A stretch of DNA of 24,000 bases, taken from Paenibacillus sp. GYB003. Its GTDB lineage: Bacteria; Bacillota; Bacilli; Paenibacillales; NBRC-103111. The translations under genes and the position numbers were made by a program. Positions 2,663-21,003 of this stretch are shown one piece after another (position 1 is the stretch's first letter; every line of letters starts with the position of its first letter). The notes beneath the pieces are model-generated. The model made no database searches. It had not been told where the DNA came from and saw nothing but the letters and a program-made list of their open reading frames with translations. The DNA lies in contig NZ_JARBDC010000005.1 of the NCBI RefSeq assembly GCF_036577625.1, positions 234,782-258,781 of the forward strand, given 5' to 3'.

Positions 2663-3586
2663 CTACCCGGCGTTCAAAATGGCTTCCGCGAATGCGACAT
2701 CCCGCACGAGCTTCGGGTATTCCCCCGGGGCCGGTCCGTCTTCGGCGCTCCAACATACGCCCATCGCCGTTTCCACGAACACGCACTGCCTCAATATCGA
2801 ATCCGGGATTTGCAGATGATTCTCCAATATGGCGATAACTTTGTTGATTTTTTCGTATAACTCCGGAGTGATTTCATCTTCGAACTCATTCAATATGAAC
2901 CGCGGAACGTCGAACACGGGATCGCCGATGACGCCTTTGGGATCGATAATGACATACTCCCCGCCGGCGCCCAGCAAAATGTTGTCATGGTGAAAATCGC
3001 CGTGAAGCAGCATCCGCCGCGAATATTCGGCCGAAACCGACAAGCAGATGTCGTGCGCTTTCTTCATATACGCATACAGTTCCCGGCAATCGGTCCGCTT
3101 GCTCATGTGATCCGTAATGCTGCCGACCCAACCGGCGTAGGTCGGGTAAAGCTCGGCATCGGCGGGCGGCTCGTGCAGGCCGTTGTAGAGGGAGCTGAAT
3201 ACGGCCATTCGTTTTTCCAGAGAAGTCTCGTCCCTTAGCGGCCGGCCCGGCTGCACCCGCTCTTCGAGGATTACGCCGTTTGCAAGGTCCGCGTCGAACA
3301 GTTTGCAAAATCGTCTGCCGTTATATTGACGCAGCGTATAGAATTCCGTGGAAGCGCCTCCGGAGGAAGAACCGCCGATTTTAAGCACCGCGTCTCCGAA
3401 CCGGTCGGAACGGCACGTTAAGACCAGGTTGGCGGAATAAGAAGGAATAAGCTGAAACGAAGTCAATGCCCATTTGTCGGCATACGTTTCGATGTCCCTC
3501 GACGCTTTTTCGTAAAAAGCTTGGCCGAAGCGGCCCGTAATGCCGTCGATTTCATCTTGCTTGAAGCGGTATCGCTTGTCCGTCAC
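2663..3586 (-). CDS. Aminoglycoside phosphotransferase family protein, APH(6)/streptomycin-6-kinase-like
   Basis: Kinase catalytic loop LLHGDFHHDNILL and metal-binding VIIDPKGVIGDP; overall resemblance to the APH(6)/hydroxyurea kinase family. I prefer the GTG at 3586, which has GGAGG 8 nt upstream. The ORF-track ATG at 3601 lies inside that Shine-Dalgarno and remains an alternative. Confidence 0.85.
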   Translation of the reverse strand: MTDKRYRFKQDEIDGITGRFGQAFYEKASRDIETYADKWALTSFQLIPSYSANLVLTCRSDRFGDAVLKIGGSSSGGASTEFYTLRQYNGRRFCKLFDADLANGVILEERVQPGRPLRDETSLEKRMAVFSSLYNGLHEPPADAELYPTYAGWVGSITDHMSKRTDCRELYAYMKKAHDICLSVSAEYSRRMLLHGDFHHDNILLGAGGEYVIIDPKGVIGDPVFDVPRFILNEFEDEITPELYEKINKVIAILENHLQIPDSILRQCVFVETAMGVCWSAEDGPAPGEYPKLVRDVAFAEAILNAG

Positions 3587-3677
3587 GGTTACGACCTCCA
3601 TTCCCCGAACGCGTCGGGAACGGCTTTTTACTGCTATTGTACTCGATACCCGGTATGTAACAACGGATTGTTTTACT

Positions 3678-4626: not shown

Positions 4627-5655
4627 TTATCCGCGCGCCGGCATTTGCTGGGTCGTGCAGTGGACGTTGCCGCCCTCGCGAATGATCGCCATCCCGTCGA
4701 CGGTGCGGATGCGCCGCTCCGGATACAGCGCCTGCAGCGTTTGCTCCGCGAGCCGGTCCGTACGGGCCGCCGCTCCGCCGAATACCGGCAGGATGATGCC
4801 CCCGTTGACGAAATAAAAGTTCAAATAGCTGAGCGTAAGCCGGCTGTCTTCGTATGTCGCCATGGGCGGCTGCTCGATCGGAACGACTTCCAGCTTGCGG
4901 CCTTTGGCGTCGGTCGCCTCCGCGAGAACCCGCAAGTTTTCCTGCGTGATCGCGTAGTTGTCGTCCTCCGGATCGCTGCATACCTGCATAAGCACTTTGC
5001 CGGGAGCGGCGAAGCAGGCGATGTTGTCGACGTGGCCGTCCGTTTCGTCCCCGCTGAGCCCCCGCTTTAGCCAAATGACTTTGCTTACGTTCAAGTACCG
5101 TTTCAGCGCGTCTTCGATCTGCTCCCGCGTCATGTCCGGGTTGCGGTTCGGGTTGAGCAGGCATTCCTCCGTCGTCAGCAGCGTCCCTTCCCCGTCGACG
5201 TGGAGCGAGCCGCCTTCCATGACGAGCGGCGCGTCGAACCGCTCGACGCCGTAATGCTCGAGCACTTTGGGGGCGACCGCGTCGTCCAAATCCCACGGCG
5301 CGTATTTGCCGCCCCACGCGTTAAACCGCCAGTTGATGCCGGCCACGCCGCCGCCTTCGCGCACGACGAACGTCGGCCCGTTATCGCGGAACCACGCGTC
5401 GTTATGCGGAATCGTCAGCACGTCGACGCTCGTCCCGGCGAAACGGCCGCGAATGCGCTCCGCATCGTCCGGATTGGCGATGACGGTAACCGGCTCGAAC
5501 TCGGCGATCGCTTCGGCGATTTGCGCATAGCCTTCGGCTACCCGCTCGTAGTGGTCCGGATAAACCATCGACTGCCGGACCGGCCAGGACAGAAACGTGC
5601 GCTCGTGCTTGGCCCATTCGGCCGGCATCGAGTATTGCATATCGGTAGGGTACAT
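4627..5655 (-). CDS. aguA: Agmatine deiminase
   Basis: Start moved to ATG at 5655 (MYPTDMQYSMPAEWAKHERTFLSWP) with AAGGGAG 10 nt upstream. Characteristic MPAEW, DAWxRDxGP and C-terminal GGNVHCxTQQ (catalytic Cys) motifs of the agmatine deiminase/PAD family. Confidence 0.92.
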   Translation of the reverse strand: MYPTDMQYSMPAEWAKHERTFLSWPVRQSMVYPDHYERVAEGYAQIAEAIAEFEPVTVIANPDDAERIRGRFAGTSVDVLTIPHNDAWFRDNGPTFVVREGGGVAGINWRFNAWGGKYAPWDLDDAVAPKVLEHYGVERFDAPLVMEGGSLHVDGEGTLLTTEECLLNPNRNPDMTREQIEDALKRYLNVSKVIWLKRGLSGDETDGHVDNIACFAAPGKVLMQVCSDPEDDNYAITQENLRVLAEATDAKGRKLEVVPIEQPPMATYEDSRLTLSYLNFYFVNGGIILPVFGGAAARTDRLAEQTLQALYPERRIRTVDGMAIIREGGNVHCTTQQMPARG

Positions 5656-5701
5656 GAAGCTATATCTCCCTTTATCGTATGTTGAAGGACAATCTTTAAA
5701 C

Positions 5702-5730
5702 ATCATATACGAAATCGGTCTCGACCTCAA
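5702..5730 (-). promoter_or_regulatory. Candidate sigma-A promoter of aguA-aguB
   Basis: Reverse strand reads TTGAGG (5730-5725), a 17 nt spacer, then TATGAT (5707-5702), about 47 nt upstream of the aguA start. Confidence 0.35.
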
Positions 5731-5763
5731 CGCAAGAAACCTGCCAATCCGTCGGGCGGGACG

Positions 5764-5786
5764 GCAAAAAGCCGCCCTGCGCGGCG
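5764..5786 (-). terminator. Short intrinsic terminator after the M16 peptidase gene
   Basis: On the reverse strand GCCGC-GCAGG-GCGGC (5785-5771) is followed by TTTTTGCC. The stem is only 5 bp. Confidence 0.4.
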
Positions 5787-5847
5787 CATGGCGGAAGGAC
5801 CCCGCCGGCTGCCGGCATGAGCGGCTTCCCGTTGCGGCCGATCAGCC

Positions 5848-11114: not shown

Positions 11115-12311
11115 TTACCCGGCTTTAATCGCCTTGCCTTTCAACGTTTCGTATATTTTCCCGTGCACGAACGCGTTCAGCCCTTCGGCGTTGAGCGTGA
11201 TCGCGTGCTGCGGCGGAATGTAGAGCAGCCGGATTTCGCGCTCGTCGCACAGCTCCTTCAGCAGCGGATACAAGAAGGAACGCATCAAAATGCTGCCGCC
11301 CCCGTAAACGCAGATGACGTCGATTTCGTTGCGCGCCTTCGTCAGCTGCTTGCGGATGTTTTGAATAATATGCCGGGCTTGTCCTTCGAGCGGACGCTTC
11401 AGCGTGTTGATCGCCCTCGCGTAATATTTGTGCTTCGGATTTTTGATGACGTCGCTGAAAAATTGCCGCGGACTGTCCGGCAAATGGACGAGACGGTTGA
11501 ATTCGCCGAGCGCCTCCTCGATTGCGTAGCCCGCTCCGTGATGGCTCCCGTGCACGAATTGGCGCAAAAACTTGTTGCCTTCCGTGATCGGATATTCCGT
11601 CGAGCCGTCCCCGATATCCGTATGTAAGATCCGTTTGTCCTTGAAATACCCGCCGTTGAACGACTTGCCGAGCTGGTACGTGTTCACGAACTCCTCGAAA
11701 ATGTCGCCTTCCCGCGGACGCCCTTCCACGTCTTTTTGCAGCGCGAAAATGACCGGCGTCGCCTCCGGGATTACTTTCGTGTAATCGAACACGACTTTGA
11801 CGGCGACCCGCTGCTTGTTCAGATGCACGGTCACGTGATGCGCACCGTCGGTAAACCGTCTCTCGAACCGGGCGGCCGTCTCGTCGGAATGCTGCGTAAC
11901 CGGCAGCGCGGTCGCCATGTCGACATGGACCTCGACTTGCTCCGGTATCGTCTGGGTCTCTTCGTACGCCTTCTGCACGGCAACCGCCGCGATTTGGCCG
12001 AGCGTATTGATGATCGGCAAGTCCATGTCGCACTTTTGGTCGATGCCGATTTGCAGCGTATCGAGCAGCTCGCCGCTTTCCAGCGCGAACTTCCCGATAT
12101 AATACATGCCGGGCTTTACGGCCGGCGAATCGATCGTTACGATCAGCTGCTCGGACAAATTTTTGATGAAGCTCTCCGGCGGCAGCTCCTCGCTCCAAGG
12201 CAGCTTGTCCACTCCGCAATACACATTCGGCTGCTTGATCAGCCTGCCGTCGATAAACAAATCGTGCTCGCTGTTCCCGTTATCGTTTCCGACGAAAAAA
12301 TGATACTGCAT
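11115..12311 (-). CDS. ParM/StbA (Alp-type) actin-fold ATPase
   Basis: Start moved to ATG at 12311 (MQYHFFVGNDNGNSEHDLFIDG) with AAAGGAGG 10 nt upstream. Actin-fold signatures: phosphate-1 GNDNGNSE, phosphate-2 DIGDGSTEY, adenosine motif VYGGGS. About 398 aa. Confidence 0.85.
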   Translation of the reverse strand: MQYHFFVGNDNGNSEHDLFIDGRLIKQPNVYCGVDKLPWSEELPPESFIKNLSEQLIVTIDSPAVKPGMYYIGKFALESGELLDTLQIGIDQKCDMDLPIINTLGQIAAVAVQKAYEETQTIPEQVEVHVDMATALPVTQHSDETAARFERRFTDGAHHVTVHLNKQRVAVKVVFDYTKVIPEATPVIFALQKDVEGRPREGDIFEEFVNTYQLGKSFNGGYFKDKRILHTDIGDGSTEYPITEGNKFLRQFVHGSHHGAGYAIEEALGEFNRLVHLPDSPRQFFSDVIKNPKHKYYARAINTLKRPLEGQARHIIQNIRKQLTKARNEIDVICVYGGGSILMRSFLYPLLKELCDEREIRLLYIPPQHAITLNAEGLNAFVHGKIYETLKGKAIKAG

Positions 12312-12480
12312 AAAAGCCAAGCCTCCTTTATGATTCATTTTTTCGGTATTACCGGGCAATGCCGAATCGGCCGGCGCGGTAATGCTTTGCAACGCCAAAC
12401 GATGCGGTCCGCTATCTCGACTTGTCGGTTCGCGGCTTTCTCGAATAAGACGCTCCATTACAATACTTCGTAACACCGGC

Positions 12481-12500
12481 CGGAATTCGGTCGGAATTCG
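12481..12500. repeat. Tandem CGGAATTCG repeat (11 bp register) upstream of the parM-like gene; centromere/operator candidate
   Basis: CGGAATTCG at 12481-12489 and again at 12492-12500. Related CGAAT/TTCG-containing words recur at 12361-12370, 12441-12450, 12428-12436 and 12518-12527. Only two exact copies exist. Confidence 0.35.
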
Positions 12501-12546
12501 CGCGTTTTTTTGCGACCGTTCGCCGGTCGGCAGATAGCCGGGGACA

Positions 12547-12577
12547 TAAAAAAGCCACGGGAGACTCTCCGTGGCTT
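12547..12577 (-). terminator. Rho-independent terminator separating the PBECR-like gene from the parM-like gene
   Basis: On the reverse strand AAGCCACGG-agagtctc-CCGTGGCTT (12577-12553) is followed by TTTTTT (12553-12548). Confidence 0.75.
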
Positions 12578-12753
12578 CGTGCCGAACAGATCATAGGCAG
12601 GTGACAATCTGCATCTCCAAACGATGGGCGACGGCTGCCTGTTCCGTCCTCAAATGATCCATTCCATGCTATTTTATGTAACAGCAGTCTTTATTATAAT
12701 GTTGATTCCAGATCGATACAAGTCCGGGCCCCTTCATTTCGCCCGCGCGAATT

Positions 12754-13128
12754 TTACACCCGCTTGAGGGACCCTTCCTCGCGATACTTGGCGACCTTAT
12801 CCTCCGACATGACGAACAGCGTCCGGGCGAACAATTTCTTTTTGCTCGTCAGCCTTACGGCGACCAACACATAGACGTCGCGTTCTTCACGAAACACCTT
12901 GATATACTCGAGCGAGCCTCTTTTCGGATGAAGGGCTACGTAATCCGGATTTTGCAGAATGTCGCGAAGATACGGAAAATAAGTTTGAAAATCCGCGGGA
13001 TGTTCCTTGCTCATGTGAGCGATGTTTTGGTCGCCTATATAAATCGGCATATCCGCCTTGAGCGAAAGCTGCAGCGCGTCGATTACGTTTTGGGTTATTT
13101 TCCCGACTACCGTATTGTTTCCCACCAA
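12754..13128 (-). CDS. PBECR-like putative nuclease (phage Barnase-EndoU-ColicinE5/D-RelE fold family), stand-alone
   Basis: 124 aa. The pattern PIYIGDQNIAHMSKEHPADFQTYFPYLRDILQNPDYVALHPKRGSLEYIKVF...VYVLVAVRLTSKKKLFARTLFVM matches my memory of small PBECR-domain proteins on Firmicute plasmids and phages (xIxHxxxxHP...Y...I...PDYV...P...SIEYIK...VAVR). GAGGTG ribosome-binding site. The start is TTG at 13128 or GTG at 13125. Confidence 0.6.
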   Translation of the reverse strand: MVGNNTVVGKITQNVIDALQLSLKADMPIYIGDQNIAHMSKEHPADFQTYFPYLRDILQNPDYVALHPKRGSLEYIKVFREERDVYVLVAVRLTSKKKLFARTLFVMSEDKVAKYREEGSLKRV

Positions 13129-13369: not shown

Positions 13370-14272
13370 TCAGCAGTAGTCGTGCGTTTCGTCCGGCCCC
13401 ACCGTATACGGGACGTATACTTCATGGCTATCTTCGTGCATCCGTTCCAAATGGTACGCGTTAGGCGCTCCCGGTTCCGCCTTCAGAAAGCCGAACTGTT
13501 TGCCCAGCCAGCGGTATAGGCTCGAATACTCCGCCCTAAAATCGTCCCTGGCGCGTTCGAACGAAAAAACGGCGTAATACTGCCCCGGTATGACCAGCTC
13601 GACCAATTGTTCCGGAACGGAGACATTCGGCGCAAACTCCCGGCAGACGAACAAACGGTGCTCCGTTACCCCCGCATAACGCTCGATAATCGGGTTGACG
13701 CAGAAACGGCCGGGCAGCACTCCCTCGATTCCCTCGGTGTGACGGTCCAGCGTCGAAACGGCGTCGGACCATGCGGATCCGGGATCGCTTATATCCACGG
13801 TCGCCTGCACGCCGGCGCATCGGATCTCGGGAAGCTTCACGAACGTGTACGAAACGAGCCTCGGAAAATTCGGTCCGTTCACGTTCTCCGTTTCGTTCAA
13901 GCCGAACAGCCCGCTCCATACCCCGAACGTGTTGCCGTCCGGATCGCGGAATTGAAACCAATGCGTATTCGCCACCCCGATTTCGAGCGGGTCGACATCC
14001 GCCCCCTCCCTGACGAGTCGGTCATGGAACGCCCCCGCATCCCTCACATGGAAATTGAGCGTCCCTTGTCCTTTTTTCTCGACGTTTTTTCGAATCCAGC
14101 AAATGCGCCCGGGCGACATTTCCATCGTCGCGAAATGCGGATTGAAGGCCAGCACCTTAAACCGCAAACAACGGCAATACCAGGCCAACGCGCTTTCGAG
14201 CTCGCCGACGAACAAGGTCGGAATGACGGACGCGACAACGGGCGACGGCGTCGCTTTGTGAATGGGGATCAT
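13370..14272 (-). CDS. Two-domain protein: N-terminal VOC (glyoxalase/bleomycin-resistance fold) + C-terminal GyrI-like small-molecule-binding domain
   Basis: This is the last 300 codons of the 1232-aa track ORF. ATG at 14272 (MIPIHKATPSPVV) has AAAGAGGAG upstream. VOC pattern: LESALAWYCRCLRFKV...NFHVRDAGAFHDRLVREGADV...FQFRDPDGNTFGVW. GyrI-like pattern: FVKLPEIRCAGV...VIPGQYYAVFSF...YSSLYRWL...YHLERMHEDSHEVYVPY. Confidence 0.85.
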   Translation of the reverse strand: MIPIHKATPSPVVASVIPTLFVGELESALAWYCRCLRFKVLAFNPHFATMEMSPGRICWIRKNVEKKGQGTLNFHVRDAGAFHDRLVREGADVDPLEIGVANTHWFQFRDPDGNTFGVWSGLFGLNETENVNGPNFPRLVSYTFVKLPEIRCAGVQATVDISDPGSAWSDAVSTLDRHTEGIEGVLPGRFCVNPIIERYAGVTEHRLFVCREFAPNVSVPEQLVELVIPGQYYAVFSFERARDDFRAEYSSLYRWLGKQFGFLKAEPGAPNAYHLERMHEDSHEVYVPYTVGPDETHDYC

Positions 14273-14455
14273 GAACTTCTCCTCTTTCTGCCTTTGGCTG
14301 TTATTTGATTTGGAAAATTCACTGGTGACGATGCCGCGCAACCTTCGAAACGTGACATCCTTTTGCCAAAAAAGTCGAAAACAATTTCGAAGAGGAGTAC
14401 GCCCGCCCCGGCGCGAATAAAAAGCGGTGAGGCTTTGCCGGAACAAGGAGGACCT

Positions 14456-17002
14456 ATGACGACGGACATCGAGCTGGAATTGGATTCGGACGAGGCCCTT
14501 ATCGAGCGCGCCCGCCAAGGGAACCGCGAGGCGTACAACGAGCTGCTGGCCCGTCATCGCGGTCGGGCGTTCGCATGGGCCAAGCAGATTACCTCCGACC
14601 ATCATTTGGCGGAAGATATCGTACAGGAAGCGCTCGTCCGCGCGTTCTTGAAGCTCGGGACGATGACGGATTTGACGAAGTTTCTGCCCTGGCTGCGGAC
14701 GATCGTGCGCAACCAGGCGATGATGAAGCTGAGGCGGGGCGGTCCGCACGGACGGGAGAAGCCGTTCCCGCCGCTTCGCGATTCGGCAACGTCCGCTTCC
14801 GAAGGCGCCGAGCCCGACTGGCGCGATCTGGACACGGTGCTGCGCCATTATGCGAAACGTGCGGGAACGGACAACGGGACCGACAGCGCCGCCTCCGGCG
14901 CGGAATCGCCTCTCGCGGAATGGCTGCCCGCCGTCGTCAAAGCGCTCGGGCCGAGGGAGCGCGACGTATTCGAGAAACATTTTTACGGGCAGCTGTCTCC
15001 GCAAGAAATCGCCGACCATTGGAATACGAACGTGAACACGATCCATAAGGCGTTGTCCCGCATTCGGCGCAAAGCCGAAGATACCCGCATCGAACTGGAT
15101 ATCCGCAGCCGCATCCGGTCCCATATCGATGCGCGCGGCGGCGGCAAACGAGTCGTTCTGGCAAAGCCGGGACTCGCCGACGAGCCCCCGGTTCACCCCG
15201 GAGCCGCCTTTCCGAACGCCCTCTATCATATTCTCCGTTCGTTGGGCAGGCCGGTAACGATGGCCGAAGCGACGGGCTACACAGGCTACGCCTTCGTGCT
15301 GAACGTCCGGCGCTCGACGATCGGCGCCGAAAGTCCGATGATCTGGGATTGGGATACGTTCCTTTCCAACGCCCTGCTCAATTTGGGCTTCCATTCGCGT
15401 TACGTCGATTACCAGCATTATAAAAATGCCGGTTCGAGCCCGCACAAAACCCGCAATCTTTTGTTTACGCTCGATATGATCCGGGATTCGATCGACCGGG
15501 GGATGCCCGCGCTGCTGAGCAGCGCGATTTCCTACGACCTTGCCGTCGTTTACGGCTACGACGACGAGAAGCAAACGCTCTACGTCGCCGACCCGCAATC
15601 GTGCGAGCAAATTTCGTACAGCAGCCTGTATTCGGGCTCTCCGAAAATCGATAAAGCGATATCCCGCGAGCTGTATGCGTTCGTCTTCGACGGGGAGCTG
15701 GACGACGATCGGCGGCTTCCGGAGCACAGACTCGTTCGGCTGCTGGAGCGGATCGTGCGTCACTCGGACGGAGACGACCCGACCTTCATGCCGTGCGCAG
15801 GCGGCTTGCGCGCCTATGACGAATGGATCGCCGCGTTCGAGAGCGGCACGATCGAACCGCTCGGGAACGCGTCGAACTTGAACCTGTACGGATGGTTTCG
15901 GGAACAGGCGGTATCGTTCTGGAAGGAACGGATCGGGGAATACGATGGCCGACGGCCGGAGTCGGCGGATCGGCATCGTTTGGCGAAGGACGGCTTGCTT
16001 GAGGTCAAACGGTGCTACGAGAGAGTGAGCGAGACGTTCGAAAAGCTGCGCGAGCTGTTCCCGTTCCCGCAAGGAGGGACGCCGCACGACCCGGATTGCA
16101 TGCGGCAAGCCGTACAGCTGCTTCGCAAGGCGAGAGAGGACGAGGCATCCGGCATCGCTCGCATTCGCGAACTGCTGCGGACGCTTCGGGAACGTTCCGG
16201 CGGAAGTGCGATCGCTCCCGTTCAACATATCGCGCTCAGTCCGTTTTATTCGTTCGGCGGCAATCGTCCGAAGCCTTCGAACGAACCTTCGAAAGCCGGG
16301 GCGCTCGAAGCCGTCGTCTGCATGTGCGCCAGCCTGAAGGAAAGCATGACGTTCTACGGCAAGCTGCTCGGCATCGAACCGGCGCCCGAAAGGCTGAGCG
16401 GACCGGTCGGCTTCCTCCCGCTTCGGGACGCCCGATTGCTCGTGCTGATGGATCGGCGACTCGACCTCAACCATGCGGATTGGCAGCCCGCCTTCTATAT
16501 CCGGGTCCCGGACGTGGACAAGGCGTACGACGATGCGAGGCGGCAAGGATGGAAAATCGTCAACTTTTTGGACAAAGGCGGTTTGTTCACGGACTTCTTC
16601 ATCGCCGCCGACCCGGACGGACATCAGCTGATCGTCGGCAGCCATTCGCTGTCGCACGCCTTTCCGTTCGCCGGCGCCGCCCCGGCTCGGCATCCGCTCG
16701 CATTCGACGCCGGACCGGCTGTGGTCGCGGCCAAAAATCCGATCGCCTCGGCGCGGGCGTACGCCGACCTGTTCGGCCCGGACGAGGCCGGTCGATGGTT
16801 CCGTTTCGCGGACAAGTACGGCCCCGACTCGTCCTTCAAGCTGCGGTTCGAGACGGCCGATGCCGATCAAGCCTACCGGCTGATCCGGAAATGCGACATG
16901 ACCGTTGCCCAGGCTGCGGAAGACGGCGCAGCCGGCATTCGCCGGTGGATTTTGCGGGACCCGGACGGGCGTCCGCTTGCCGTCGATGTCGTGCGGTCGT
17001 GA
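14456..17002 (+). CDS. ECF-type sigma-70 family factor fused to a roughly 600-aa C-terminal extension (unassigned central region + two VOC-like modules)
   Basis: ATG at 14456 with AAGGAGG at 14445-14451 (short 4 nt spacer; the TTG at 14363 is an alternative start). Region 2: DEALIERARQGNREAYNELLARHRGRAFAWAKQITSDHHLAEDIVQEALVRAF. Region 4 HTH: LGPRERDVFEKHFYGQLSPQEIADHWNTNVNTIHKALSRIRRKA. The extension ends in two VOC-like modules: about 16300-16640 (FYGKLLGIEP...FYIRVPDVDKAYDDARRQGWKIV...DPDGHQLIV) and about 16700-16999 (ARAYADLFG...FETADADQAYRLIRK...LRDPDGRPLAV). Confidence 0.85.
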   Translation: MTTDIELELDSDEALIERARQGNREAYNELLARHRGRAFAWAKQITSDHHLAEDIVQEALVRAFLKLGTMTDLTKFLPWLRTIVRNQAMMKLRRGGPHGREKPFPPLRDSATSASEGAEPDWRDLDTVLRHYAKRAGTDNGTDSAASGAESPLAEWLPAVVKALGPRERDVFEKHFYGQLSPQEIADHWNTNVNTIHKALSRIRRKAEDTRIELDIRSRIRSHIDARGGGKRVVLAKPGLADEPPVHPGAAFPNALYHILRSLGRPVTMAEATGYTGYAFVLNVRRSTIGAESPMIWDWDTFLSNALLNLGFHSRYVDYQHYKNAGSSPHKTRNLLFTLDMIRDSIDRGMPALLSSAISYDLAVVYGYDDEKQTLYVADPQSCEQISYSSLYSGSPKIDKAISRELYAFVFDGELDDDRRLPEHRLVRLLERIVRHSDGDDPTFMPCAGGLRAYDEWIAAFESGTIEPLGNASNLNLYGWFREQAVSFWKERIGEYDGRRPESADRHRLAKDGLLEVKRCYERVSETFEKLRELFPFPQGGTPHDPDCMRQAVQLLRKAREDEASGIARIRELLRTLRERSGGSAIAPVQHIALSPFYSFGGNRPKPSNEPSKAGALEAVVCMCASLKESMTFYGKLLGIEPAPERLSGPVGFLPLRDARLLVLMDRRLDLNHADWQPAFYIRVPDVDKAYDDARRQGWKIVNFLDKGGLFTDFFIAADPDGHQLIVGSHSLSHAFPFAGAAPARHPLAFDAGPAVVAAKNPIASARAYADLFGPDEAGRWFRFADKYGPDSSFKLRFETADADQAYRLIRKCDMTVAQAAEDGAAGIRRWILRDPDGRPLAVDVVRS

Positions 17003-17056
17003 TCTTGCATACCGGCTCTGCCGCGCGATGCCGTCGCTTCGGCAACAACGACCAAA

Positions 17057-17086
17057 GCCGTCCTTCATCCGAAGGGCGGTTTTTCC
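17057..17086 (+). terminator. Rho-independent terminator after the long sigma-fusion gene
   Basis: CCGTCCTTC (17058-17066) pairs with GAAGGGCGG (17071-17079): 9 bp with one G-U pair and loop ATCC. It is followed by TTTTTCCTT. Confidence 0.7.
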
Positions 17087-17269: not shown

Positions 17270-17296
17270 TGTCACAGCTTCGCCTCCTTCCTCGTC
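17270..17296 (+). promoter_or_regulatory. ECF41-type promoter (TGTCACA-N16-CGTC)
   Basis: TGTCACA at 17270-17276, exactly 16 nt of spacer (17277-17292), CGTC at 17293-17296. This lies 38 nt upstream of the oxidoreductase ATG (17334) and matches the published ECF41 target-promoter consensus. Confidence 0.7.
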
Positions 17297-17333
17297 TTGT
17301 GTAACGAAAACGAAAAGACGGAGGATGATCCTT

Positions 17334-18644
17334 ATGAATCGTTACGATGCAGCCGTAATCGGCGGAGGCTTGTCGGGTCTTATTGCGGCGGTCCTGCTGG
17401 CCCGGGCGAACAAATCGGTCGTCGTGCTGGAGAAGTCCGAGCGTATCGGCGGAAGGGCGATGACGATCGACAAAAAAGGCGCCCTCTTCAACCTCGGCGG
17501 CCATGCGCTGTATCGCGGCGGAGAAGCGCATTCGATTTTGCAGGAGCTTGGCGTGCGTCTCAAAGGCGGCAAGCCGCTCGCCGACGGGTTCGCGTTATGG
17601 CAAAACCGGCTGCTGCCGCTGCCGGGGGATCCGGTTCGGCTGCTCGCTTCGCGGCTTTTGACATGGTCCGGCAAAATCGAGCTGGGGCGCGCCATGCTCC
17701 GCATCGGCAAAATCCGCACGGCCGACCTGCCCGACATCAGCTTGCGCGAATGGGCCGAGCGGGAAATCCGCGACCCGATGGTGCGTCATCTGCTGTATGC
17801 ATTGTGCCGGACGGCCACTTATAATAAAGACATCGATATTCAGCCGATCGGACCGGTCATGCGGCAAATCCAGCGATCGCTGAAGGAAGGGGTTCTCTAT
17901 TTGAACGGAGGCTGGCAGACGATCGTCGATCAGCTGCGGGAGATGGCCGTCCGCGCCGGAGCGACCGTCATGACCGGCAAAAGCGTCGCCGAGATTCGGC
18001 ACGACGGAGCGGTTCGGGGCATCCGTTGCGCGGACGGCGCCGCCATTGAAGTCGATGGCGTCATCAGCACGCTGTCCCCGGCCGACACGTACCGGCTGGT
18101 CCGCGACGCGGAGCGAACCGCTTTGCGCCGCTGGAAAGAAGCGGCCAGGCCGGTCAAGGCGGCGTGTCTCGACCTTTGTCTGCGCAAGCTTCCGGTGCCG
18201 GATCGCCATTTCGCGATCGGCATCGATCAGCCCGTTTTTTTCACCCATCATTCCCGGGTCGCCCGGTTGAGCCGGGACGCGACGCTCGTGATGCATCTGA
18301 TCAAGTATAACGACGGCGCGGAAAGCGATCCGAAAGCGGACGAGACAATGCTCGAATCGACGATGGATCTGCTGCACCCCGGCTGGCGGAACGAAGTGGC
18401 GGCGAAGCAATATTTGCCGAACATGACCGTCGTTCACGACGTCGTCCGCGTCGGCCGAAAAGACGCGCCCGGTCCCGCCGTACCGGAAATCGGCGGATTG
18501 TACGTCGCCGGCGACTGGGTCACCCGGGGGGAAATGCTCGCCGACGCCGCCGCGGCAAGCGCCGAGCGCGCCGTGCGGGAGCTGCTGCAATCCTCGCCCG
18601 CCGTCCGGACGGACGCCGTGCGGCCGTTGACCAAATGGGGCTGA
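17334..18644 (+). CDS. NAD(P)/FAD-dependent oxidoreductase (phytoene desaturase/amine oxidase-like)
   Basis: Start moved to ATG at 17334 (MNRYDAAVIGGGLSGLIAAVLLARANKSVVVLEKSERIGGRA, i.e. a GxGxxG dinucleotide fold plus the GGR motif). GGAGG (17320-17324) lies 9 nt upstream; the ATG at 17325 abuts the Shine-Dalgarno. C-terminal GLYVAGDW is typical of this flavoprotein family. Confidence 0.9.
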   Translation: MNRYDAAVIGGGLSGLIAAVLLARANKSVVVLEKSERIGGRAMTIDKKGALFNLGGHALYRGGEAHSILQELGVRLKGGKPLADGFALWQNRLLPLPGDPVRLLASRLLTWSGKIELGRAMLRIGKIRTADLPDISLREWAEREIRDPMVRHLLYALCRTATYNKDIDIQPIGPVMRQIQRSLKEGVLYLNGGWQTIVDQLREMAVRAGATVMTGKSVAEIRHDGAVRGIRCADGAAIEVDGVISTLSPADTYRLVRDAERTALRRWKEAARPVKAACLDLCLRKLPVPDRHFAIGIDQPVFFTHHSRVARLSRDATLVMHLIKYNDGAESDPKADETMLESTMDLLHPGWRNEVAAKQYLPNMTVVHDVVRVGRKDAPGPAVPEIGGLYVAGDWVTRGEMLADAAAASAERAVRELLQSSPAVRTDAVRPLTKWG

Positions 18645-18674
18645 CCTGACCGGCCCGCCGAAAGGATGATCGCT

Positions 18675-19598
18675 ATGGACCATACCGTTCCTATCGAGGA
18701 CTGGTACGCCGCCTACAAGCCGCTTTTATTTTCGCTCGCTTACCGGATGCTGGGCAGCGTCATGGACGCGGAAGATATCGTGCAGGAAGCGTTTCTGTCG
18801 CTGGGTGCCGCAGCCGACCCTGCGCCCATTCGGAACGGCAAAGCGTATTTGTGCAAAATCGTCACGAACCGCTGCATCGATCGTCTCCGTTCCGGTCAGG
18901 CGAAGCGGGAAGTGTACGTGGGGCCGTGGCTGCCGGAGCCGATCGTGACGCCGGAGACCGACGCGCAGGCGGACCCGCTTCAAGCGTATGTGCGCAGCGA
19001 GTCGGTGTCGACGGCTTACCTGCTTCTGCTGCAGCAGCTGTCGTGGGTCGAGCGGGCCGTCTTTTTGCTGAGGGAAGTGCTGCAGTACGATTACGACGAA
19101 ATCGCCGGCATCGTCGGCAAAAGCGCAACGAACTGCCGGCAAATTTTTCACCGGGCGAAGCGCGGCATCAGCCTCCGCCCGCCGCACGACGAAGAAGCCG
19201 CCCCCGTGCCGGGGGCGGCGTCGTCCCGCCCGGCCGATCCCGAACGAACGGGCGAGCTGGTCCGGCAATTCGTTCAGGCGCTCGCAAGCGGGGATATCGC
19301 CAGGCTGCTCGGCATCTTGTCCGAAGACGCCGTGCTTTACTCGGACGGCGGCGGCAAAGTGCATGCGGCGACTCGCCCGATCGTCGGAGCGGACCGCGTG
19401 ATCCGATTTCTTACGGGCTTGCTCGAAAAAGCGTCCCCCGCCTTCTCGTTCCGGTTCGCCCGAGTCGGGAGCGACGCCGGCATCGTCACGTACGAAAACG
19501 GCGTTCCGCAATCGGTGTTTTCGTTCCATGCCGAGAACGGACGAATCGCGGCGGTGTATATCGTCGTCAATCCGGATAAGCTCGCTTATGTCCGCTAG
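18675..19598 (+). CDS. ECF41-group sigma factor (SigJ-like) with fused SnoaL-like C-terminal domain
   Basis: Region 2 DAEDIVQEAFL and region 4 LSWVERAVFLLREVLQYDYDEIAGIVGKSATNCRQIFHRAKR. It also carries the three ECF41 signature motifs: WLPEP (GPWLPEPIV), DGGGK (YSDGGGKVHAA) and NPDKL (VVNPDKLAYV). Start is ATG at 18675 (AAAGGA 8 nt upstream) or ATG at 18666. It begins 22-31 nt after the oxidoreductase stop with no terminator between. Confidence 0.9.
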   Translation: MDHTVPIEDWYAAYKPLLFSLAYRMLGSVMDAEDIVQEAFLSLGAAADPAPIRNGKAYLCKIVTNRCIDRLRSGQAKREVYVGPWLPEPIVTPETDAQADPLQAYVRSESVSTAYLLLLQQLSWVERAVFLLREVLQYDYDEIAGIVGKSATNCRQIFHRAKRGISLRPPHDEEAAPVPGAASSRPADPERTGELVRQFVQALASGDIARLLGILSEDAVLYSDGGGKVHAATRPIVGADRVIRFLTGLLEKASPAFSFRFARVGSDAGIVTYENGVPQSVFSFHAENGRIAAVYIVVNPDKLAYVR

Positions 19599-19628: not shown

Positions 19629-20339
19629 CTAGCAGATGCACGTCTTCCGCTTGACGCCGACCTTCCCCCGCTCCTCAGCCTTGCGGATATATTCGGACGC
19701 CCGCGGCACCTTGCACGCCGTTTGCCCGACGTCGACCTTGACGCTGCCGATGGCGTCCGCGCAAGCTTTGGCTTTCTCGTGCAGCGGGGCCGCATAGACG
19801 CCGACCGCGATGACGAATCCGTTCATCGCATAGCGGACCCGGTTCCGTTCTTCGTGAACGGTCGCTTCGATCTGACCCAGCAGCCGCTCGATACGCCGCA
19901 GATCGAGCCGGCCGTCGGGAGTAATCGATATATAGTTCGCGTACGTGCTCCAGCCGCAGACAGCCGTCATCTCGTCGGGAGACCGGATCCAGTCTTCCGC
20001 GAGCTCGAGGGCGTGCGGGCTTTCGGCCGCCACCCAGGCGACGGCGTACTCGGCGAGCATATACCAGTTCGCCGCACGCACCCAGCGCTGCAGCATGTCT
20101 TTGTCCGCCGTCCTCGGATCGACCGTGAGTCCGGCCAAGTACATCGCGTCGCTGTTCCCGGTATCGTACAAAGCGCGTGCGACTTGCTGGTTTGCTTTCA
20201 CCTCTTTGACGAGCTTCTTCAGGTCTCCGACCTTGACTCCGAATAACGGCTCCTTGGCCCCGTGCCGCAAAAACGTGCTTTTCGTTTGCTCCGATCCCAT
20301 CGCTTCGAGCTTGTCCATCACTTCGCGCAGCGTCGTCAT
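19629..20339 (-). CDS. DNA alkylation repair protein (AlkD/YhaZ-like HEAT-repeat family)
   Basis: Start moved to ATG at 20339 (MTTLREVMDKLEAMGSEQTKSTFLRHGAKEPLFGVKVGDLKKLVKEV) with AAGGAGGA 8 nt upstream. The pattern FGVxxGDLRKLAK...ALxLxxTGxxEA is typical of the DNA_alkylation family. Confidence 0.82.
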   Translation of the reverse strand: MTTLREVMDKLEAMGSEQTKSTFLRHGAKEPLFGVKVGDLKKLVKEVKANQQVARALYDTGNSDAMYLAGLTVDPRTADKDMLQRWVRAANWYMLAEYAVAWVAAESPHALELAEDWIRSPDEMTAVCGWSTYANYISITPDGRLDLRRIERLLGQIEATVHEERNRVRYAMNGFVIAVGVYAAPLHEKAKACADAIGSVKVDVGQTACKVPRASEYIRKAEERGKVGVKRKTCIC

Positions 20340-20463
20340 CGCATATGTCCTCCTTGAACCGCCATACGTGAAAAAGGTTATAATCATCGTAAACGAAAAA
20401 ACGGGAAGAAGCGGGCGGCCGAACCTGTTCCCGGCGCTCGCTCTCCCGAATCGGGGGATTTCC

Positions 20464-21003
20464 ATGATTTTGCACAAAGGCGAGACGTTGTTCCGCCAAG
20501 GAGAAACGGGGCCGCTCTACCGGTTAAACAGCGGCCTGCTCAAAATCGTCCGGGTCCACGAGGACGGCCGGCAATTCGTAGTCAACCTCATCGTGCCGGG
20601 CGAAACGATTCCGCACCATTCGCTCATCAGCCCGAACCCGTATTTCGGAACGGCCGAAGCGCTCGTCACTTGCGAGGTCGACGTCCTGCCGGCGAACGAA
20701 TGGTACCGGGAAGCGGAGAGCAGCCCGGACAAAATGCGCGCCATCGCCCTGCAGCTGCAGGAAAAGCTGCGCATGATGCAGCAGCGGATCGATCAGCTGA
20801 CCGAGGTCGCGCCCGCCGAAAAGCTGCGCAAGCTGGACGCCTGGTTCGGCGCCTATATCGCGCCGGTCTCGATGACGGAGCTGCTCACGCAGGACGAAAT
20901 CGGCCAATTGATCGGCGTTCGCCGCGAGACGGTCAACCGGCTGCTGCGGGCCGGAATCGCCGCTCAGTCGTCCAGCCGGCCCGAGGGTCCGAAAAATTCG
21001 TAA
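20464..21003 (+). CDS. Crp/Fnr family transcriptional regulator (short, 179 aa)
   Basis: ATG at 20464 with GGGGGA 5 nt upstream. cNMP-binding-type beta-roll LFRQGETGPLYRLNSGLLKIVRVHEDGRQFVVNLIVPGETI, a dimerisation helix, and HTH LTQDEIGQLIGVRRETVNRLL. Only the last 179 codons of the 352-aa track ORF are used. Both termini are shorter than in typical family members. Confidence 0.72.
   Translation: MILHKGETLFRQGETGPLYRLNSGLLKIVRVHEDGRQFVVNLIVPGETIPHHSLISPNPYFGTAEALVTCEVDVLPANEWYREAESSPDKMRAIALQLQEKLRMMQQRIDQLTEVAPAEKLRKLDAWFGAYIAPVSMTELLTQDEIGQLIGVRRETVNRLLRAGIAAQSSSRPEGPKNS

Follow-up and report, generated by a model that had tools for sequence, protein, structure and literature searches.

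Sigma factors of the extracytoplasmic function (ECF) type that carry fused regulatory domains are the counterpart of one-component systems among sigma factors, and few of their extension types have been studied (SnoaL, TPR and Cys-rich). In the ECF41 group, which includes SigJ of M. tuberculosis and Ecf41Bli of B. licheniformis, there is no anti-sigma factor and a C-terminal regulatory domain is fused to the sigma factor, where it contacts the linker between sigma2 and sigma4. These factors serve essentially one adjacent target gene or operon from the promoter TGTCACA-N16-CGTC, the -35 element of the group beginning with TGTCA. ECF56 factors (SigG of M. tuberculosis and SVEN_4562 of S. venezuelae) control genes of the vicinal oxygen chelate (VOC) superfamily, the 'glyoxalase-like' Rv0887c and Rv0911 being the best-documented targets, and the SigG precedent also includes induction by mitomycin C and activation by C-terminal truncation. 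Here we describe a locus in a 24,000-nucleotide (nt) stretch of Paenibacillus sp. GYB003 (contig NZ_JARBDC010000005.1, positions 234,782 to 258,781; the window), in which an 848-amino-acid (aa) ECF-type sigma factor continues into an extension of about 640 aa and faces a divergently transcribed gene for a VOC + GyrI-like protein. The extension is predicted to consist of a BtrH/CtaG-like pseudoenzyme domain followed by two VOC domains, and protein and gene together look like an undescribed kind of one-protein sensing/resistance switch.

Like the ECF41 factors, the 848-aa protein lacks an anti-sigma partner and carries a fused C-terminal domain in its place. Its extension is however about 640 aa of pseudoenzyme and VOC domains as opposed to about 100 aa of SnoaL-like domain, the linked genes encode VOC/GyrI-like proteins and not the carboxymuconolactone decarboxylase/oxidoreductase/epimerase (COE) proteins targeted by ECF41, and the candidate promoter has GCATC where the ECF41 -10 element is CGTC. 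The protein also scored far below the ECF41 model, in contrast to a true ECF41 sigma factor elsewhere in the window (TIGR02957, 341.5 bits). With ECF56 it shares the combination of an extension-bearing ECF and linked VOC genes, but ECF56 is actinobacterial, has a SnoaL-type extension and uses the promoter CGATGA(GTT)-N14/18-G(G)TC. The VOC fold is confined to the regulon in ECF56, whereas here it is also part of the sigma factor itself.

The sigma factor and its pseudoenzyme extension

The sigma gene starts at an ATG at 14456, with AAGGAGG just 5' of it, and its stop codon ends at 17002. The features of the gene are as follows.

14456..17002, + strand: sigma gene, 848-aa soluble ECF-type product with a C-terminal extension of about 640 aa (open reading frame (ORF), ribosome-binding site, Pfam/NCBIfam)
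14543..14737, + strand: sigma region 2, aa 30-94 (PF04542, 44.6 bits, cut-off 24)
14738..14920, + strand: long linker between sigma2 and sigma4, aa 95-155; RRGGP..E..F and W122 are motifs shared across the family (alignments)
14921..15073, + strand: sigma region 4.2, aa 156-206 (PF08281, Sigma70_r4_2, 34.1 bits, cut-off 25.7)
15137..16195, + strand: predicted BtrH/CtaG-like bipartite pseudoenzyme domain, aa ~228-580 (AlphaFold2, Foldseek)
16238..16261, + strand: linker motif SPFYSFGG between pseudoenzyme domain and VOC tail, aa 595-602 (alignment)
16292..16639, + strand: VOC domain 1, aa ~613-728 (PF00903, model)
16703..16993, + strand: VOC domain 2, aa ~750-846 (marginal sequence match, E 0.1; model confidence above 90)

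The Pfam matches to regions 2 and 4.2 and the match to the generic TIGR02937 sigma70-ECF model (64.8 bits, cut-off 42.9) were all above their cut-offs, bearing out the call of an ECF sigma factor made by the first-pass annotation, which had worked from the letters of the window without database searches. No Pfam match to Sigma70_r1 or Sigma70_r3 was found in the protein, indicating that region 1.1 and region 3 are absent. The linker between the sigma domains had been put at about 70 aa and measured about 60 aa, with just one extra helix in the AlphaFold2 model. Within or beside it R93, R94, G95 and G96 were invariant in the 20 long orthologues, and E101, F104 and W122 recurred in 80% or more of 120 relatives. 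The full-length model was compact, with a mean predicted local distance difference test score (pLDDT) of 89.7 and a predicted template-modelling score (pTM) of 0.82 over the 848 aa. Low confidence was limited to the N-terminus (aa 1-7) and parts of the linker (aa 100-115 and 146-148).

The long reading frame is not a product of misassembly, a concern that the first-pass annotation had raised. About 20 full-length orthologues (819-911 aa, 40-72% identity) with identical architecture were found in independent Paenibacillus genomes and metagenomes, and we rejected an assembly or annotation fusion. The earlier statement that no anti-sigma gene is nearby also held. No anti-sigma or membrane-partner gene was found between 12754 and 19598 by ORF list and Pfam, nor any anti-sigma-like gene in the window, and hydrophobic segments are missing from the sigma protein, whose highest Kyte-Doolittle mean over 19 aa is 1.09. 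A membrane-anchored or adjacent anti-sigma factor was rejected on these grounds. Within the extension of the 848-aa protein no anti-sigma Pfam family was matched, and its fold by Foldseek was papain-like and not that of a helical anti-sigma domain.

Beyond the generic superfamily model the 848-aa protein matched none of the named ECF subfamilies of NCBIfam. Neither a SnoaL domain nor TIGR02957 was among its Pfam and NCBIfam matches, and SnoaL-like, TPR and DUF1835 families were absent both from the protein and from the precomputed domains of the 120 relatives. ECF41, ECF42, ECF56, ECF115, ECF262 and the Saccharibacillus group ECF264 (DUF1835) were each rejected as a home group as their extension domains are all absent. 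The protein does have a conserved extension of more than 50 aa and no adjacent anti-sigma gene, the first 370 aa of the extension being conserved in more than 100 relatives and the whole 640 aa in about 20 orthologues. It is a member of the ECF sigma family and falls in the informally recognized class of ECFs that carry a regulatory extension at the C-terminus. The 2021 reclassification (Casas-Pastor) and the 2022 review list about 26 ECF groups with extensions, none of which is papain-like, BtrH-like or VOC in the main texts. Full-text searches of the accessible literature returned no description of a sigma factor fused to a VOC extension, as the first-pass annotation had supposed, or to a BtrH-like one. 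Judged by the extensions that the papers searched describe for ECF groups, the protein would represent a new extension/partner type for a one-component ECF.

The center of the protein (aa ~215-600) had no significant match to a Pfam or NCBIfam family and was modeled with AlphaFold2 after alignment with 119 relatives. The model was of high confidence (pLDDT 93.4, pTM 0.92) and folded into a papain-like alpha/beta lobe (aa ~228-420) followed by a helical lobe, a bundle of long helices (aa ~421-580). When the model was compared to the PDB with Foldseek, bipartite papain-like natural-product enzymes were the sole significant family, with AziU3/U2 at E 5e-6, CtaG at E 2.5e-3 and CcbD at E 3.4e-3. 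The paper on CtaG defines the bipartite papain-like class and includes BtrH and AsbE in it. A guess that the center might resemble BtrH, offered earlier as speculation, was thus upheld at the level of the fold. At the level of sequence neither Pfam BtrH_N nor DUF4872 was matched significantly (best single-member E 0.18 and 0.0057).

The remark that no catalytic Cys is evident in this region proved correct for the family as a whole. The nucleophile column was set by analogy to the papain fold, at the N-terminal end of the first helix in the core, and not by a residue-level structural alignment to CtaG or CcbD. Among 120 relatives this putative column held F (43), A (22), V (17) or C (12), and also I or G, and among 50 stand-alone relatives it held A, I, F, L or W. 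No Cys was invariant anywhere in the domain. Conserved positions were nonetheless numerous, with P351, Y366-G-Y-D-D370, H436, G450, W457, R482, FPFPxGG at 535-541 and E563 invariant or nearly so, and D/E361 conserved along with H436. As a catalytic Cys is not conserved across the family, the domain is by its sequences a pseudoenzyme that retains a conserved surface or pocket. An active cysteine transacylase or protease was rejected for the same reason, and the incomplete triad together with the lack of a significant Pfam match indicates that the domain is not a functional member of the CtaG/BtrH enzymes. It shares with CtaG, BtrH, AsbE, CcbD and AziU3 a papain-like N-lobe and a helical C-lobe enclosing a chamber; it differs from them in lacking the triad Cys, in lying outside a biosynthetic cluster and in being attached to transcription factors.

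The 848-aa protein matched a protein of Paenibacillus sp. GYB003 at 100%, and its relatives fell into two forms. The VOC-tailed form comprised about 20 proteins with the full architecture, from about 20 Paenibacillus lineages. The short form comprised more than 100 proteins of 540-620 aa with sigma factor and pseudoenzyme domain and no VOC tail, from Paenibacillus, Cohnella, Brevibacillus, Melghirimyces and Xylanibacillus; P0031 and P0035 among them are paralogues in the same genome. As judged from these sources the sigma family is found mainly in Paenibacillaceae and neighbouring Bacillales. The many tail-less relatives indicate that the conserved unit is sigma factor plus pseudoenzyme domain and that the VOC tail is clade-specific, predicted to be a later addition in one clade, joined through SPFYSFGG.

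The central domain was then searched alone against 1.84 billion representative proteins and only 349 clusters were recovered. The domain occurred in four forms in these clusters: fused to a sigma factor, as a stand-alone protein of 305-350 aa, with a C-terminal DinB_2 domain (P0155, 505 aa) and in a single fusion to a BlaR1/Peptidase_M56 protease (P0225, 1455 aa; M56 at aa 20-325, the domain at aa 768-1071). In P. konkukensis the two halves of the protein are separate genes. A 259-aa sigma factor, 42.6% identical to aa 15-235 of the 848-aa protein and retaining the RRGGP..E..F linker motif, is followed 21 nt on by a 333-aa stand-alone domain protein and then by a pentapeptide-repeat gene. Eighty metagenome loci with the domain were classed using family-specific hidden Markov models (HMMs).

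Fused sigma + domain: 17/80
Family sigma ORF directly upstream on the same strand (HMM E 1e-72 to 1e-87): 12/80
Reverse order: 1/80
Sigma ORF overlapping the domain ORF: 1/80
Cut off upstream: 18/80
No sigma within 4 kb: 31/80

In the split form the domain gene occupies the slot usually held by an anti-sigma gene. At some of the loci without a sigma factor the domain forms the C-terminal part of regulators with a winged helix-turn-helix (wHTH)-(WYL)-WCX organization, as in the 630-860-aa proteins of L134, L156, L160, L164, L166 and L168, which carry HTH_11 and WCX with a distant copy of the domain (22-25% identity) at the C-terminus. No description of such a fusion was found in the literature. 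The occurrence of the domain fused to a sigma factor or in the anti-sigma slot, and also on unrelated transcription factors, would most simply be explained if it is a portable regulatory input module. The first-pass annotation had cast the VOC tail as the sensor. The tail-less relatives, the split genes and the reuse on wHTH-WYL-WCX proteins do not favor this assignment, as they make the central domain the family's conserved partner, and the BtrH-like domain is probably the conserved regulator, to which one clade has added the VOC tail.

Two VOC modules had been predicted for the tail. The first was confirmed by Pfam (PF00903 Glyoxalase, aa 622-725, 38.1 bits, E 2e-9, above the gathering score), while the second was recovered in the structure model and not by sequence alone. 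The full-length model placed consecutive VOC-type beta-alpha-beta modules at aa 616-728 and 755-845, and by Foldseek about 250-300 columns of the tail aligned to the two-domain VOC proteins AbxF, Rv0577 and the extradiol dioxygenases, with template-modelling (TM) scores by target of 0.58-0.65 to AbxF and Rv0577. The tail sequence had no significant match in the PDB, and the last 120 aa of the protein had no significant family match by sequence. Like AbxF, Rv0577 and the type I extradiol dioxygenases, the tail has two VOC domains in tandem that consist of paired beta-alpha-beta-beta-beta modules, but it is appended to a sigma factor and appears to have no conserved His/Glu metal set. Across the 20 orthologues VOC domain 1 contains an invariant loop, D666-x-R668-L-x-L-x-H673-x-D675-W676, in which H673 is the sole invariant His of the tail. 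Conserved Glu residues are absent, a pattern that makes a classical VOC metal centre doubtful. The likeness of the tail to bleomycin/mitomycin binders is at the superfamily level only.

In the SPFYSFGG motif P596, Y598, F600 and G601 were invariant in the 20 VOC-tailed orthologues. The motif sits in an otherwise unstructured linker and might serve for docking, as a peptide, or for processing, as a cleavage site. At L098 a small ECF-like ORF (5134-5787, + strand) directly follows a split sigma/pseudoenzyme pair. This ORF has a partial Sigma70_r2 match, a Sigma70_r4_2 match and a weak C-terminal Glyoxalase match (E 0.005), and may be a direct sigma-VOC fusion.

The divergent gene and the intergenic motif

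The gene facing the sigma gene also has a good ribosome-binding site. Its features and those of the intergenic region are as follows.

13370..14272, - strand: divergent VOC + GyrI-like gene, 300 aa (ORF, Pfam)
13925-14218, - strand: Glyoxalase (VOC) domain of the divergent protein, aa 19-116 (Pfam)
13406-13849, - strand: GyrI-like domain of the divergent protein, aa 142-289 (PF06445, 36 bits, cut-off 26)
14273..14455, unstranded: divergent intergenic region, 183 bp (sequence)
14330..14356, - strand: candidate bipartite promoter-like motif GTCACG-N16-GCATC (alignment of 8 intergenic regions)

The two Pfam domains agree with the description of the neighbour given by the first-pass annotation. 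The same note had asked for a conserved linkage between sigma factor and neighbour, and this was found when 7 of the about 20 orthologues were placed on contigs. VOC/GyrI-like genes were divergent from the sigma gene in all seven loci. In five of them the first divergent gene was a true orthologue of the window gene (76, 72, 66, 63 and 53% identity), and these identities fell in step with those of the sigma factors. The other two loci had a divergent operon with other VOC and GyrI-like + VOC proteins. The first divergent gene was often trailed by between one and three additional small VOC genes (5 orthologous loci). One locus, L086, had a second small ECF sigma gene followed by an unannotated 278-aa ORF, with no such candidate in the other six. 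The divergent VOC + GyrI-like protein is presumed to be both the sigma factor's target and its effector.

Of 10 selected neighbour ORFs that were scanned across the wider family, 6 were GyrI-like, VOC or pentapeptide-repeat proteins, and a metallo-beta-lactamase-fold protein was also among the neighbours. Other loci had a second pentapeptide gene as well as an ABC transporter. Pentapeptide-repeat genes directly followed split pairs at two unrelated loci (L090, 7021-7539; L097, 4951-5664). Some pentapeptide-repeat proteins (Qnr, McbG, AlbG) protect DNA gyrase. At the short-form locus of Brevibacillus centrosporus (L088, 4934-5827) the divergent operon encodes proteins of 119 and 154 aa, for which no Pfam match was found, followed by an ABC transporter; the two proteins are candidate novel effectors.

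TipAL/TipAS, BmrR and AlbA, MerR regulators with GyrI-like sensors, are one-component systems in which the sensor and the induced sequestering protein share a ligand-binding fold. A similar sharing had been suggested for the tail and the divergent protein. Both do have the VOC fold, yet relatedness beyond the fold could not be detected. A recent duplication of the neighbour's VOC domain was rejected as the origin of the tail as there was no BLAST similarity between them, and the tail's weak BLAST match (23% identity, E 1e-5) was to an unrelated two-VOC gene in L085. The locus thus differs from TipA, which has a MerR-type HTH and uses the same domain in sensor and effector, in having a sigma factor and VOC domains in tail and effector that are not detectably related.

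The intergenic regions of eight orthologous loci were aligned. They were about 50% identical overall and contained one block conserved throughout, which was present in 8/8 regions and held 12 of the 15 invariant alignment columns. Read toward the VOC gene, the family consensus is an A/T tract, TGTCAGG-N16-GCATC and a conserved G 8-10 nt further on. The motif is asymmetric with ECF-like spacing, and its -35 half resembles that of the ECF41 promoter. The end of the block lies 36-57 nt from the VOC start codon across the loci (57 nt in the window), and the copy at 14330-14356 is the sole exact match within the 24 kb. A scan of the 183 bp for sigma-70 consensus promoters gave nothing. The motif was not found upstream of short-family members, indicating that it is specific to the VOC-tailed clade. 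The upstream A/T tract, the typical length of the untranslated region (UTR) and the TGTCA-type -35 element favor the direction of the VOC gene, and an ECF-type promoter of the VOC/GyrI-like gene is the favored reading of the motif, its strand being deduced from these features.

A proposed switch and its alternatives

We propose that the 848-aa protein is a cytoplasmic, single-polypeptide ECF sigma factor whose cognate regulator would be the dead BtrH/CtaG-like domain and not a classical anti-sigma factor. The extension would dock on sigma2, on sigma4 and on the conserved linker and would set how active the sigma factor is, most likely by holding it inactive. Docking is probable given the pTM of the whole chain, the family-wide conservation of the linker and the split-gene pairs. 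A small molecule, probably an antibiotic or genotoxic natural product, would alter the docking by occupying what was once the active-site chamber of the pseudoenzyme, the VOC cups, or both. The freed or enabled sigma factor would then direct RNA polymerase to TGTCAGG-N16-GCATC in front of the divergent gene, and the VOC + GyrI-like product would bind, sequester or degrade the compound. GyrI-like and pentapeptide-repeat proteins, VOC binders, WYL-type regulators and genes for AlkD-type or other DNA glycosylases near several loci hint, circumstantially, at DNA- or gyrase-targeting natural products as the signal. Architecture, linkage and motif partly support the one-component circuit suggested by the first-pass annotation, in which ligand gating is a putative feature, but not its choice of the VOC tail as the sensor. 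We consider a one-component circuit likely, and give the full proposal, a dead-enzyme-regulated one-protein ECF switch that induces the divergent gene, a probability of roughly 0.55.

Several observations weigh against the proposal. The contact between extension and sigma2/sigma4 was read only from the pTM value of the model. The extension of ECF42 is activating rather than inhibitory. The metagenome relatives with no sigma factor within 4 kb (31 of the 80) indicate that the domain is not exclusively a sigma partner, and the invariant residues of the tail include one His but no Glu. The motif is without the common ECF 'AAC' and 'CGT' signatures, on the + strand it can be read as GATGCC-N16-CTGAC, a possible autoregulatory promoter 89-110 nt before the sigma start, and neither strand is favored by how far the motif lies from the two start codons.

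The ECF42 precedent leads to an alternative in which the extension is required for sigma activity, as a positive element of the ECF42 kind or as a recruiting scaffold, with no direct action of a small molecule. According to a review, ECF42 cannot be active without its TPR extension and ECF41 requires part of its own extension to function, and the strong conservation of the domain surface and the sigma linker would fit a permanent structural role equally well. A domain that is reused by wHTH-WYL-WCX and BlaR1-like regulators and paired with VOC and DinB_2, folds of ligand binding and detoxification, is however typical of an input domain, and in ECF56 truncation activates the sigma factor; we regard a required extension as unlikely. 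Control by chemistry, with the extension acting as an enzyme (transacylase, hydrolase or VOC-type catalyst) or being cleaved at SPFYSFGG, appeared improbable. There is no conserved nucleophile at the papain-type position, no canonical metal ligand set is evident in the VOC domains, and most relatives are without the SPFYSFGG linker and tail. This stands against the enzymatic nature of the fold family, the conservation of E/D361, H436 and C624, and a strictly conserved linker motif that is otherwise unexplained, some ECF extensions being thought to be released by proteolysis (review).

The remaining alternatives concern the motif. It might be the sigma gene's own autoregulatory promoter or the operator of another regulator, leaving the VOC/GyrI-like gene as a mere conserved neighbour. 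Most ECFs autoregulate (literature introduction), the + strand reading loosely resembles the ECF56/SigG promoter CGATGA-N18-GTC, and its spacing from the sigma start varies no more than that from the VOC start. The UP-element-like A/T tract however lies upstream only for the minus-strand reading, the conserved G past GCATC falls where the start site would be, TGTCA as the -35 half agrees with the ECF41 type, the 5'-UTR of 28-49 nt would be of typical length, and the effector orthologues co-vary with the sigma factor. Autoregulation or a foreign operator is in our estimate slightly less probable than a required extension. Recognition of the motif by the ECF41 sigma factor encoded at 18666-19598, in place of the 848-aa protein, is the least probable of these explanations and very improbable. 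It draws on the TGTCACG with which the window motif begins and on the presence of a bona fide ECF41 unit at the locus. That unit has its own perfect promoter signature, the motif has GCATC at N16 and CGTC only at N20, and the seven orthologous loci keep motif and long sigma factor with no SnoaL-extension sigma among the called genes, the extra sigma factor in L086 being without a SnoaL domain.

If the dead-enzyme-regulated switch is correct, a dead natural-product transacylase fold joins the short list of studied ECF extensions. The chance that the pseudoenzyme domain represents a new class of sensor or anti-sigma module is a realistic one. Its occurrence in split as well as fused gene pairs offers a genetically tractable route to such a soluble anti-sigma/sensor class. 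The circuit is small, with one sigma gene, a 183-bp control region, one effector gene and a predictable target promoter, which suits it to mechanistic work and to orthogonal synthetic-biology switches. The recurring VOC, GyrI-like, pentapeptide-repeat and ABC-transporter effectors suggest that soil Bacillales have an unexplored, inducible route of resistance to compounds that target DNA or gyrase, and the identity of the ligand could uncover both the resistance mechanism and the class of compound that selects for it. We also entertain a broader reading, tentatively and with the odds somewhat against it. The pseudoenzyme would be a hitherto unrecognized, portable cytoplasmic sensor/anti-sigma module that, separate or fused, controls an entire ECF family amounting to a new group, and also the input of wHTH-WYL-WCX and BlaR1-type proteins. 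It would couple the detection of antibiotics or genotoxic natural products to resistance genes of the VOC, GyrI-like, pentapeptide-repeat and ABC-transporter kinds, and the 848-aa protein would then be its most elaborate form, with a second (VOC) input.

Genes around the locus

Further features of the window lie downstream of the sigma gene.

17057..17086, + strand: hairpin GCCGTCCTTC-ATC-CGAAGGGCGG followed by TTTTT, candidate intrinsic terminator (direct sequence reading)
17270-17296, + strand: exact ECF41 promoter signature TGTCACA-N16-CGTC
17335 (real ATG) to 18644, + strand: FAD amine-oxidase-like oxidoreductase gene of the ECF41 unit
18666-19598, + strand: ECF41/SigJ-type sigma gene with SnoaL_2 extension (TIGR02957, 341.5 bits)

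The hairpin is likely an intrinsic terminator as judged by its letters, in which case the sigma gene would be monocistronic; it was not listed by the consensus terminator scan. The ECF41 unit (17270-19598, + strand) lies directly downstream in the published >COE>>ECF> arrangement, so that two different extension-bearing ECF systems stand side by side. A minus-strand ORF of 1232 aa (13370-17068) covers the entire sigma gene. Only its final 300 codons are a real gene, that of the VOC + GyrI-like protein, and the long ORF was rejected as a gene as it is a GC-rich read-through artefact. It is a possible trap for automatic gene callers.

The window has an AlkD-type DNA_alkylation repair gene (PF08713) at 19629-20477 (- strand), which places it about 2.6 kb downstream of the sigma gene. 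The same family is represented about 4 kb from the orthologue of Paenibacillus sp. OV219 (L084, 12672-13388), and a Pur_DNA_glyco glycosylase gene lies near the PR3 orthologue (L086, 9601-10188). DNA repair genes and the GyrI-like effector hint at DNA-alkylating compounds as the stress. An aminoglycoside/hydroxyurea-type phosphotransferase (APH) gene is present in the window at 2663-3601 (- strand), about 11 kb from the sigma gene, and APH genes were also seen near sigma orthologues (L082, 9157-10185; L086, 11594-12397; L087, 9875-10753). Genes of the beta-lactamase family recurred near orthologues in L081, L084 and L087. The sigma neighbourhoods appear to be rich in resistance-type genes.

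On the other side of the locus, a PBECR3/PBECR2 phage-Barnase-EndoU-ColicinE5/D-RelE-like nuclease gene is located at 12754-13128 (- strand). It adjoins a 453-aa ORF (11115-12476, - strand) with a weak actin/MreB-like match at its C-terminus. The GC content of 11115-13128 is lower (0.52), and this segment may be a mobile-element remnant bordering the locus.

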